The notes beneath the pieces are model-generated. The model did not search any database. It was not told where the DNA came from and was given only the letters and a program-made list of their open reading frames with translations. From a virus (Duplodnaviria > Heunggongvirae > Uroviricota > Caudoviricetes): a stretch of 37,331 nucleotides of DNA. Numbering within the stretch: position 1 is the stretch's first letter; the number at the start of each line of letters is the position of its first letter. The translations under genes and the position numbers were made by a program. Below, piece after piece: positions 33,881-34,823 of the stretch. The stretch covers positions 1 through 37,331 of the IMG/VR virus record IMGVR_UViG_2537561506_000022; one strand, written 5' to 3'.

Positions 33881-34180
33881 GTGAGAAAGTTAAGCCGACT
33901 TGAAAAATATCACATGAACAAGGTTTCAATGCGCAGCCCTTCAAAGGTTGTTGCCGTTACTCCTGCGGCGATAGAGATCGAAAAACGCGCGATTGAAAGA
34001 GAGAAAAAAGGGCAGTTCCGCATTGCCGCCCACCTTTGGCTTCAGTGTATGGATGTTGCTTCTGGTGATGTTGAGCGTGCAAGGATCGCGGTTCGCAGGG
34101 ACCAATGTATCACAAAAGGTAACGGCCTTCGCCGTGGCGACTATAGCGGCATAGGATGTTGCGGGGTGGTTTATGACTAA
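33881..34180 (+). CDS. PerC-family-like transcriptional regulator (tentative)
   Basis: Start uncertain (GTG 33881, ATG 33914 or 33929); LWLQCMDVASGDVERARIAVRRDQC resembles the PerC pattern; stop overlaps the methyltransferase start. Confidence 0.4.
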   Translation: MRKLSRLEKYHMNKVSMRSPSKVVAVTPAAIEIEKRAIEREKKGQFRIAAHLWLQCMDVASGDVERARIAVRRDQCITKGNGLRRGDYSGIGCCGVVYD

Positions 34181-34823
34181 GAAATACACACTAATCTATG
34201 CAGATCCACCCTGGGTATACCGGGACAAAGCCGCAGATGGTAATCGCGGTGCCGGTTTTAAATATCCGGTTATGAGTGTGCTGGATATCTGCCGCCTTCC
34301 TGTGTGGGATTTGGCCGATGAAAACTGTCTGTTGGCCATGTGGTGGGTGCCAACACAACCACTCGAAGCACTAAAAGTTGTTGAAGCCTGGGGATTCCGT
34401 CTGATGACCATGAAGGGCTTCACGTGGATAAAATGTGGTAGTCGACAACCAGATAAACTGGTTATGGGTATGGGGCACATGACTCGCGCCAATAGTGAAG
34501 ATTGCCTGTTTGCGGTAAAGGGAAAACTACCTACGCGCATTAATGCAGGGATCGTTCAGTCATTTACCGCACCGCGGCTTGAGCATTCAAGAAAACCAGA
34601 TATCGTTCGTGAAAAACTTGTGCAATTGTTAGGCGATGTTTCTCGCATTGAACTGTTCGCCCGCCAGTCGTCTCATGGTTTCGATGTTTGGGGTAATCAG
34701 TGCGAAGACCCGGCAGTGCAACTACACCCTGGATACGCGTTGGATATTGGCGGATTAACAAATGCATTCAGCAATGCTCCGCTGTCACCAACAGACAACC
34801 AGGGGCGGGAGCGTGCAGCATGA
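34173..34823 (+). CDS. DNA N6-adenine methyltransferase (phage Dam-type, DPPW motif)
   Basis: 216 aa; LIYADPPWVY is the N6-adenine methyltransferase catalytic motif. Confidence 0.8.
   Translation: MTKKYTLIYADPPWVYRDKAADGNRGAGFKYPVMSVLDICRLPVWDLADENCLLAMWWVPTQPLEALKVVEAWGFRLMTMKGFTWIKCGSRQPDKLVMGMGHMTRANSEDCLFAVKGKLPTRINAGIVQSFTAPRLEHSRKPDIVREKLVQLLGDVSRIELFARQSSHGFDVWGNQCEDPAVQLHPGYALDIGGLTNAFSNAPLSPTDNQGRERAA

Follow-up and report, generated by a model that had tools for sequence, protein, structure and literature searches.

The PerC domain is known chiefly for its part in virulence regulation in EPEC and EHEC. To our knowledge, activation of ler/LEE1 is the only function shown for the PerC family, and we know of no phage PerC-like protein whose function has been demonstrated. 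PerC of the EPEC plasmid pEAF and PchA/B/C, PchD and PchE of E. coli O157:H7 have a core of ~49 residues (LE..G.[WFY]R.AA..WL...ER....RR..C) in common with the 99-residue protein described here, with PchE only 31% identical to it over the core. In contrast to PerC and the Pch proteins, this protein starts with a distinct, conserved helix and ends in a C-terminal tail, and its gene lies inside an early operon instead of at a moron position. Within Uetakevirus, phiV10 (PhiV10p34/p33) and epsilon15 (gp31/gp29) carry both genes of our locus, likewise placed between alpA and int in the operon; the epsilon15 products are an MT-A70 methyltransferase and a ‘transcriptional activator’ of 99 aa. A PerC-domain gene followed at once by an overlapping adenine methyltransferase gene is also found in the K-12 cryptic prophage CPS-53 (YfdN-YfdM), in SfV (orf40-dam) and in ST64B (sb43-sb44). 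However, the PerC proteins of these pairs have an additional winged-helix-like domain at the N terminus (weak MarR/HTH hits), the methyltransferases fall in PF05869 Dam rather than in MT-A70, and the pairs are found after replication genes, whereas ours is next to int.

The window (the whole 37,331-nt stretch of DNA analyzed) is a phiV10/epsilon15-like (Uetakevirus) prophage that adjoins guaA, and the element is a temperate podophage of the phiV10/epsilon15 type residing in E. coli. The region with the pair is 100% identical to RefSeq chromosomes and 98.4% identical in DNA to phiV10 (p34/p33). It is carried by 559 of 5426 complete E. coli genomes (~10%), including many CDC Shiga-toxigenic isolates, and because of this distribution the perC and methyltransferase reading frames are real genes and not chance ones. 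Their coordinates and plus-strand orientation in the first-pass annotation were exact (Table 1). In RefSeq the identical proteins go under the names “PerC family transcriptional regulator” and “MT-A70 family methyltransferase”; the gene identities are thus already known from RefSeq and from phage phiV10, and the finding as first stated adds nothing beyond existing annotation. The order alpA, membrane gene, perC, methyltransferase and int is found in epsilon15, SPN1S, phiV10 and prophages of five further genera, with the pair in the same place also in Citrobacter, Klebsiella, Superficieibacter and Scandinavium prophages. Downstream, the window has an 82-aa gene and an AntA/B antirepressor, in contrast to the DUF1382 gene of phiV10.

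Sequence elements upstream of the pair have counterparts in both reference phages. The phiV10 annotation places a terminator at the position of the hairpin that follows the repressor gene, and in epsilon15 three sites annotated ‘repressor; lysogeny’ share the half-sites of the window palindromes (ATTACC-N5-GGTAAT). These palindromes lie on either side of the TTGACA promoter-like site, an arrangement shared with the repressor sites of epsilon15. The sigma-70 promoter-like site, whose TTGACA recurs at the equivalent position in epsilon15, is likely the promoter of the early-left operon, as judged from its sequence. A chain of overlapping genes runs from 31463 to 35068, with overlaps of 4–8 nt, and includes a 104-aa ORF (31463–31777) whose stop overlaps the exonuclease start (ATGA). 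Stop/start overlap is therefore the general style of this operon and is not special to the perC–methyltransferase pair, which lies within the chain of early genes, confirming the early-operon location originally proposed. Sequence scanning found no plus-strand promoter-like site between 31289 and 35007, in a promoter scan that was not enriched over shuffles (8 sites versus 7.2 expected), and no plus-strand terminator-like site after 31209. No LexA box was found near the ant gene at 35363.

Table 1 Features of the early-left region of the window and of the perC–methyltransferase pair
Feature	Position	Strand	Remarks
Terminator-like hairpin	31190..31209	+	After the repressor gene (30585–31169); 8-bp stem with 6 GC pairs, then a T run
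Operator-like palindrome ATTACC-TTACA-GGTAAT	31226..31242	.	Half-sites as in epsilon15
Sigma-70 promoter-like site TTGACA-17-AATTAT	31261..31289	+	10/12 matches
Second operator-like palindrome ATTACC-TCAAC-GGTAA	31288..31304	.	Overlaps the −10 hexamer
Exonuclease gene	31774..32595	+	273 aa; same operon
RecT recombinase gene	32592..33473	+	Start overlaps the exonuclease stop (ATGA)
AlpA-family small regulator/excisionase-like gene	33523..33771	+	82 aa; Phage_AlpA 24.2 bits (cut-off 21); phrog_66
Membrane protein gene	33768..33884	+	38 aa; phrog_17484, E 1.8e-26; its start overlaps alpA (ATGA) and its stop the perC GTG (GTGA)
PerC-family protein gene	33881..34180	+	99 aa; GTG start, TAA stop; Pfam, PHROGs, alignment
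Shine-Dalgarno-like GGGGTGG	34163..34169	+	In the last perC codons; predicted to serve the methyltransferase start
8-nt overlap ATGACTAA	34173..34180	+	Holds the methyltransferase ATG and the perC TAA
MT-A70 family N6-adenine methyltransferase gene	34173..34823	+	216 aa; ATG start, TGA stop; orphan in the window
Catalytic motif IV codons, D11-P12-P13-W14	34203..34214	+	Invariant in the clade alignment
Last gene of the overlapping chain	34820..35068	+	82 aa; phrog_9805, E 6e-58; ATGA overlap with the methyltransferase stop

The assignment of the first gene to the PerC family, initially tentative, is supported by a Pfam match of residues 35–80 to PF06069 (30.1 bits, gathering score 22.6; E 6e-07), and PHROGs places the 99-aa protein in phrog_868, ‘transcriptional activator’ (E 6.5e-62). 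Measured against the core consensus G-x-[WYF]-R-x-A-A-x-x-W-L ... E-R ... R-R-x-x-C, the window protein (G44-QFRIAAHLWL...ERARIAVRRDQC76) has all of the invariant or nearly invariant residues G44, R47, A49, A50, W53, L54, E65, R66, R72, R73 and C76, with Ile in place of the second Arg (FRIAA). Its first 11 residues, including the near-invariant Y10-H11, are kept in homologs of 61–85% identity, which supports the GTG start; phiV10 RefSeq, by contrast, begins the gene at an internal ATG (88 aa). The AlphaFold model of the protein has four helices (pLDDT 73.6). A Foldseek search of the PDB with this model returned nothing significant, the best matches being MIT/TPR-like three-helix bundles at E 0.86; sequence search of the PDB gave no match, and the predicted fold yields no mechanism. 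The PerC-core profile also hit a 923-aa repetitive protein (P0248), which we took for an artefact, and TPR proteins (P0277), which we put down to generic helical-hairpin similarity. The PerC core also weakly resembles the ANR (Aar) anti-activators, which are small helical proteins as well (NCBIfam NF033650, E 3.4e-05). Membership in that family was rejected, with 23.6 bits falling below the cut-off of 32, but the resemblance may hint that the PerC domain acts by protein–protein contact.

The second gene encodes a predicted N6-adenine methyltransferase with a DPPW motif, in agreement with the first-pass annotation. Its product matches the Pfam family PF05063 MT-A70 at full length (79.7 bits against a gathering score of 23.9; profile positions 1–172 of 172), has the motif intact at residues 11–14, and falls in phrog_359 of PHROGs, ‘DNA methyltransferase’ (E 3e-120). 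The description ‘Dam-type’ is imprecise, Pfam giving no hit other than MT-A70 at E up to 0.1 and PF02086 and PF05869 remaining unmatched; HMM searches thus recovered the PerC and MT-A70 families but not Dam, which had been named with them. The enzyme has a permuted beta-type core of the METTL3/MTA1 kind, and an alignment of 10 clade members has 54 invariant positions, the S139-x-K141-P142 region among them. With DPPW and these clade-invariant positions retained, it looks active. METTL3/IME4 and ciliate MTA1 (PDB 7f4r, 7f4l) share the full-length MT-A70 core and its DPPW, whereas the window enzyme is a bare 216-aa catalytic core of phage origin, in which no target-recognition domain is obvious; no METTL14- or MTA9-type partner subunit is encoded near it. 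The enzyme was also described as an orphan, and indeed no endonuclease gene is adjacent to it in the window. Its neighbors, perC and the 82-aa gene, lack a nuclease or a PADLOC hit and do not make up a Type II restriction-modification system. Identity with M.EcoGIX, which is a plasmid-borne, single-strand-specific enzyme, was rejected. Likewise rejected was identity with M.EcoGI or M.EcoGII, prophage orphan m6A methyltransferases of E. coli O104:H4, since these are 349-aa DPPY enzymes with a central recognition domain (PMC5778455), while Pfam finds only MT-A70 in the window enzyme.

The MT-A70 family is named in Pfam for the mRNA m6A writer, and some sources call homologs ‘N6-adenosine-specific RNA methylase IME4’, which would fit an enzyme that, like METTL3/IME4, acts on RNA and not on DNA. 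We regard an RNA target as very improbable. Among solved structures, the one nearest to it is that of the Tetrahymena DNA 6mA enzyme MTA1 (E 3.5e-13, aligned over residues 3–172; METTL3, 6e-06), and the protein matches the PADLOC model for Type II DNA methyltransferases (MTase_II, E 2.8e-77). Moreover, classical DNA methyltransferases (Dam, D12 and C5) occupy the same slot in sister phages, and because these bona fide DNA methyltransferases of other families fill it, we take the target to be DNA.

Whether the pair serves the phage or the host was judged from its surroundings and its distribution. The first-pass annotation saw host-directed cargo rather than core phage functions, that is, lysogenic conversion in which the PerC-like protein regulates host genes (e.g., LEE/ler) and the methyltransferase reprograms the host epigenome. 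PerC and PchA/B/C do activate ler (PMC5931665), the window protein and a PerC/Pch-type representative are 45% identical over the 49-residue core, and the prophage, present in about a tenth of complete E. coli genomes, is common among Shiga-toxigenic strains, in which virulence can depend on PerC homologs. However, PchD and PchE barely activate ler, so that family membership does not predict ler activation, and YfdN figured in the same study only as a gene deleted from the reporter strain (PMC5931665). The setting of the pair also argues against the cargo view: it is conserved across the genus and not patchy, it sits in an overlapping operon behind a repressor-type operator/promoter, and our scan found no promoter-like or terminator-like site of its own, as a moron or lysogenic-conversion cassette would have. 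The same pair is, furthermore, kept in phages of Salmonella, Citrobacter, Klebsiella and Enterobacter, hosts that are understood to be without LEE. Finally, comparable orphan methyltransferases carried on E. coli prophages are not transcribed in the lysogenic state (PMC5778455, PMC4659465); M.EcoGI and M.EcoGII are documented cases (PMC5778455), and similar silence of the window enzyme would be predicted from its sequence context. The evidence collectively favors ordinary early-phage roles over host reprogramming, and lysogenic conversion by this pair appears improbable.

We consider it reasonably probable that the pair is the distal part of a repressor-controlled early-left operon, encoding a small PerC-family protein made up of helices only and an orphan MT-A70 methyltransferase whose translation begins at an overlapping start. 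The operator and promoter architecture suggests that this operon would be silent in the lysogen and turned on after induction or infection. The methyltransferase would then methylate replicating phage DNA, and host DNA incidentally, and methylation of the phage DNA would most likely keep newly made phages from being restricted in the host they enter next. An early regulatory or adaptor role would fall to the PerC-like protein, which would be produced along with the enzyme.

A neighborhood survey of 80 PerC loci, which are not phylogenetically independent and form 22 clusters at ≥60% PerC identity, revealed a recurrent association with methyltransferases in many temperate phages of enterobacteria. 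In 13 of the 22 clusters a DNA methyltransferase lies within 2.5 kb downstream on the same strand, directly adjacent in 10, and in none (0/22) is a methyltransferase found upstream of PerC or on the other strand. Diversity in the survey was drawn from distant PerC representatives; scanning viral contigs with the window PerC alignment yielded near-identical copies only, and the genome scan 6 loci. The partner family varies between and within PerC clusters (MT-A70, PF05869 Dam, PF02086 D12, C5 or PAPS-reductase fusions), and a stop/start overlap of 1–8 nt with an upstream G-rich ribosome-binding site is usual, whatever the methyltransferase family. Three surveyed loci (L119, L121 and L130) share the junction ...GGGAGGCrTACTmAATGACTGAC. 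A whole-word literature search found no papers connecting PerC to methyltransferases.

These data raise the possibility, which we consider less likely than not, that phage PerC proteins are functionally tied to DNA methylation and that the window pair is one instance of a widespread two-gene module. Such a tie could mean that PerC controls methyltransferase expression, or that it regulates on or through methylated DNA. Pointing in this direction are the consistently downstream position of the methyltransferase, the retention of overlap and ribosome-binding site while the partner family changes, and the occurrence of the pair in two genomic contexts, namely early-left next to int (Uetakevirus) and after replication genes (SfV, ST64B, F1055 and CPS-53 yfdN-yfdM). 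Apart from the shared ancestry among survey loci, several observations weigh against the tie. Methyltransferases of the nin region occur without PerC, as in a NinB–methyltransferase–NinD arrangement whose MT-A70 is 70% identical and which has no PerC; another MT-A70 copy, 78% identical, sits after a lysis cassette. In epsilon15 and most other Uetakevirus relatives, one or two unrelated genes stand between perC and the methyltransferase, whereas the window has none. That methyltransferases of unrelated families replace one another speaks against a specific protein–protein complex, and no methyltransferase lies near the Pch-like PerC genes or PchE. If the link is functional, it would be the first clue to the role of the PerC domain in phages and would be relevant to the means by which phages keep orphan methyltransferases, which are potentially toxic, in check. 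Tentatively, the PerC family might have originated as phage early proteins co-translated with a methyltransferase of any family, acting as a small subunit that controls or exploits methylation, with the virulence regulators PerC and Pch being exapted, methyltransferase-less offshoots.

The stop/start overlap between the two genes was described correctly at the outset, the perC stop lying 8 nt inside the methyltransferase ORF (ATGacTAA). GGGGTGG ends 3 nt upstream of the methyltransferase ATG and is kept in all Uetakevirus-like relatives; with this internal ribosome-binding site and the overlap ATGACTAA, the locus has the arrangement expected of a translationally coupled pair, and translation of the two genes may be coupled. 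Two PerC–methyltransferase fusions, P0123 (297 aa) and P0121 (263 aa), are 98–99% identical to the window and stem from an indel or a deletion, located at the junction or close to it, that is present in one to three assemblies; they were not counted as natural fusions or as evidence of interaction. The 3′ end of perC reads GGGGTGGTnTATGAnTAn in all relatives and TATGACTAA in most (7/9). Its embedded ATG opens a small ORF in relatives (DUF1317 in SPN1S and in locus L102), and in the window it opens MTKKYTLIY, where the methyltransferases of relatives start MTGKYTLIY. The direct abutment of PerC and methyltransferase is an apparent deletion specific to the phiV10 lineage, which would have joined two ATGAC starts, the conserved one at the 3′ end of perC and that of the methyltransferase gene.

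Profile searches with Pfam supported both protein identifications of the first-pass annotation. The first protein scores 30.1 bits against the curated PerC cut-off of 22.6, and PHROGs agrees (phrog_868, 'transcriptional activator', E = 6.5e-62), turning a tentative PerC call into a firm one. The second is an MT-A70 protein (79.7 bits, all 172 profile positions covered; phrog_359, 'DNA methyltransferase', E = 3e-120) with the DPPW motif at residues 11–14, as expected of the N6-adenine methyltransferase that had been proposed. The label 'Dam-type' is imprecise: in the Pfam scan the other methyltransferase families gave no match, leaving MT-A70 as the sole assignment and no Dam-family enzyme. 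The GTG start of perC is supported by conservation of residues 1–11 at the protein level in homologs of 61–85% identity and by its overlap with the stop of the preceding 38-aa gene. The reported stop/start overlap is likewise present, with the methyltransferase ATG lying 8 nt ahead of the end of perC (ATGacTAA).

Both identifications are correct but already present in public annotation. Chromosomes of numerous E. coli strains match the 1.7-kb region at 100% identity; the region occurs in 559 of 5426 complete E. coli genomes and shares 98.4% identity with phage phiV10 (genus Uetakevirus, epsilon15 group). In strain 2015C-4944, where the prophage adjoins guaA, RefSeq names the products 'PerC family transcriptional regulator' (WP_001228937.1) and 'MT-A70 family methyltransferase' (WP_000163457.1); phiV10 p34 and p33 carry equivalent annotation.

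Features of the perC–methyltransferase pair and of the operon control region
Feature	Position	Strand	Detail
PerC-family gene	33881-34180	+	GTG start, TAA stop, 99 aa
MT-A70 methyltransferase gene	34173-34823	+	ATG start, TGA stop, 216 aa
Shine-Dalgarno-like GGGGTGG	34163-34169	+	5' of methyltransferase ATG
Repressor-like HTH gene	30585-31169		upstream of operon
Terminator-like hairpin	31190-31209	+	ends repressor-like HTH gene
Promoter-like site TTGACA-17-AATTAT	31261-31289	+	after terminator-like hairpin
Palindrome ATTACC-TTACA-GGTAAT	31226-31242		flanks promoter-like site
Palindrome ATTACC-TCAAC-GGTAA	31288-31304		flanks promoter-like site

The two genes lie in a chain (31463–35068) comprising a 104-aa ORF, an exonuclease gene, recT, alpA, a 38-aa membrane protein gene, perC, the methyltransferase gene and an 82-aa ORF, with a 49-nt gap between recT and alpA. 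Neighboring genes in the chain overlap by 4 nt (ATGA or GTGA) and the perC/methyltransferase junction by 8 nt; overlap is therefore an operon-wide style and no special trait of this pair. The equivalent region of epsilon15 has three annotated repressor-binding sites of the form ATTACC-N5-GGTAAT around a TTGACA promoter. Scans of the plus strand found no further promoter-like site from 31289 up to 35007 and no terminator-like site 3' of 31209. From this architecture, we infer that a repressor-controlled early-left operon, predicted to be silent in the lysogen, includes perC and the methyltransferase gene. Such silence agrees with that published for other orphan methyltransferases borne by E. 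coli prophages, which are unexpressed in lysogeny (PMC5778455, PMC4659465).

The order alpA, membrane gene, perC, methyltransferase, int is common to epsilon15 (gp33, gp32, gp31, gp30 and gp29), SPN1S and phiV10, and recurs in prophages of Citrobacter werkmanii, C. braakii, Superficieibacter, Scandinavium and Klebsiella. An Erwinia dacicola prophage has a PF05869 Dam gene in place of the MT-A70 gene at the same position. Both functions thus belong to the conserved gene set of these phages. Some hosts of these relatives are not known to carry the LEE, and conservation that extends to such hosts argues against the proposal that the pair is host-directed cargo, a reading that finds no support in operon structure or operator architecture either.

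What varies among the relatives is the spacer between the two genes. The window and phiV10 have none. In epsilon15 the spacer is one small ORF; SPN1S and C. werkmanii have DUF1317 together with a DndB-like gene, Superficieibacter has a gene for a 203-aa protein with no assigned function, and Scandinavium and Klebsiella both have a weakly PD-(D/E)XK-like gene. The perC 3' end reads GGGGTGGTnTATGAnTAn in all relatives and TATGACTAA in seven of nine. In the relatives, the ATG embedded there starts the next small gene (MTNPHD...; DUF1317 in SPN1S and the related locus L102), and their methyltransferase genes start ATGACCGGTAAATAC (MTGKYTLIY), each with its own ribosome-binding site; in the window, the corresponding ATG starts the methyltransferase itself (MTKKYTLIY). 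The simplest reading of these sequences is that the junction arose in the phiV10 lineage when a deletion joined one ATGAC start to another, which would have placed the methyltransferase gene onto a coupling site that perC already possessed.

In the sister prophages, the stops of the variable spacer genes (L003 5001-5993; L097 4448-5515; L099 4254-4829; L102 4319-4822; L098 4448-5056) overlap the MT-A70 start. The DndB-like protein has a DGQHR domain (Pfam E = 1.3e-42) and is called DndB by PADLOC; the PD-(D/E)XK-like protein scores 23.9 bits, under the cut-off of 26.1. Their products could act with the methyltransferase as restriction-like or defence partners, in which case the enzyme would be no orphan in those phages.

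In the window, the genes adjoining the methyltransferase include no endonuclease gene, so the enzyme is an orphan here. It retains DPPW and every one of the 54 positions that are invariant when ten clade members are aligned, so the sequence gives no sign of inactivation. The closest solved relative is the ciliate DNA 6mA enzyme MTA1 (E = 3.5e-13), followed by METTL3 (6e-06), and the PADLOC Type II methyltransferase model also matched (E = 2.8e-77). M.EcoGI, GII and GIX were first suspected as the identity of this enzyme and were rejected. Homologs of 70–78% identity occur without a PerC gene in quite different phage settings, one between NinB and NinD in lambdoid nin regions, again with overlapping starts, and the other 3' of a lysis cassette; the methyltransferase is therefore independent of PerC. 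An Enterobacter hormaechei homolog (P0189, 238 aa) looks chimeric: its N-terminal half carries an insertion of roughly 20 residues and resembles the subtype of survey loci L133 and L160, and its C-terminal half and tail are nearly identical to the window enzyme.

The PerC-like protein shares with other family members only a core of roughly 49 residues, 45% identical to a Pch-type representative, 31% to PchE and 29% to YfdN. The AlphaFold model comprises four helices and a disordered tail (mean pLDDT 73.6). Its structural neighbors included none of significance (best, MIT/TPR-like bundles, E = 0.86), and a sequence search yielded no solved PerC homolog. A sub-threshold match to the ANR family (NCBIfam) and the weak TPR/MIT similarities hint that the core is a module for protein contacts and not a DNA-binding domain of the classical kind. 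YfdN-type relatives are longer and carry an additional N-terminal winged-helix-like domain, which suggests that in them the core is an effector module joined to a DNA-binding domain. Examples are yfdN itself (L004 6388-6882), L103 and P0265, with the PerC core C-terminal; the winged-helix matches are weak (MarR_2, HTH_24, HTH_27; E about 1e-3). [quoted passage not shown]

Of interest beyond the original observation is the recurrence of PerC–methyltransferase pairs in other phages. In the K-12 cryptic prophage CPS-53, yfdM, a PF05869 Dam fragment, comes directly after yfdN (PerC domain), a pair also seen in SfV (orf40-dam) and ST64B (sb43-sb44), and in Salmonella phage F1055 a PerC gene precedes a D12-class Dam. 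We surveyed distant PerC representatives and their IMG/VR loci, scoring every ORF against profiles of PerC and of four methyltransferase families (founding members Pfam-verified); the 80 loci formed 22 clusters at ≥60% PerC identity. A DNA methyltransferase lay within 2.5 kb downstream on the same strand in 13 clusters and directly adjacent to PerC in 10, and none of the 22 had one upstream or on the opposite strand. Five clusters accommodated two or more methyltransferase families in one slot. Irrespective of family, the stop/start overlap was 1, 4, 7 or 8 nt, with an upstream G-rich ribosome-binding site. Three loci with a near-identical PerC gene (L119, L121 and L130; 2688-2730) carry a PF05869 Dam, a D12 Dam and a PAPS-reductase+Dam fusion behind the same junction, GGGAGGCrTACTmAATGACTGAC, with first codons M-T-D in common, which indicates cassette exchange precisely at the start codon.

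The pattern exceeds chance, but the clusters are non-independent and the nin region houses methyltransferases anyway. That unrelated families are interchangeable argues against a specific complex between PerC and the enzyme, and favours either co-expression under selection or a connection via the methylated DNA that the enzymes produce. A favoured insertion slot could likewise account for the pattern. We regard a genuine functional tie as possible but less likely than not. A literature search for a PerC–methyltransferase link returned no paper.

Among the methyltransferase-free clusters are Pch-like genes with unannotated ORFs behind them; two of these ORFs have a signal-peptide- or lipoprotein-like N-terminus as judged by eye. 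In the E. coli O157 Sakai prophage Sp7, a 15-kb satellite-like element with int, primase, SSB, PchE and capsid genes, pchE (L174 16773-17045) lies between the SSB gene and head/packaging genes, with no methyltransferase in its neighborhood; this position would suit a late-gene regulator. One large IMG/VR group has a PerC-like gene, a ParB-HTH protein of 300–440 aa and an MT-A70 or D12 methyltransferase about 1.3–1.7 kb downstream. ParB-HTH was Pfam-confirmed only in L126, L144 and L155, the same three in which the profiles found no methyltransferase; L154–L171 are probable members in which the identity of the intervening gene is presumed.

We propose the following as the most likely mechanism, with lysogen silence read from the operator arrangement. 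Induction would open transcription of the early-left operon, and the PerC-like protein and the methyltransferase would be produced together. The methyltransferase would then methylate phage DNA, probably as a shield against restriction, and the PerC-like protein would serve as an early regulator.

The prophage also encodes three antirepressor-like genes (Bro-N, P22_AR_N and AntA/B). The AntA/AntB gene (35363–36049, +; E = 4.5e-26), located after the early-left operon and before int, has its own promoter-like site (TTGACA-18-CATACT, 35141–35170, +). In phiV10 a DUF1382 gene takes its place; within this region, it is the AntA/AntB gene that is truly moron-like and variable. The P22-type antirepressor gene (P22_AR_N, 3684–4619, −; E = 6e-45) is set opposite an Arc-like ribbon-helix-helix gene (4950–5408, +; E = 1e-14), a pair resembling an immI-like region. 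The far end of the prophage has a perfect match to the LexA-box consensus, CTGTATATTTATACAG (1299–1314), shortly 5' of a small ORF (1337–1593, +); a Bro-N domain gene comes after this ORF (1909–2604, +). These elements may form an SOS-controlled antirepressor module, and a comparable one has reportedly been described for the related phage SPC32H.
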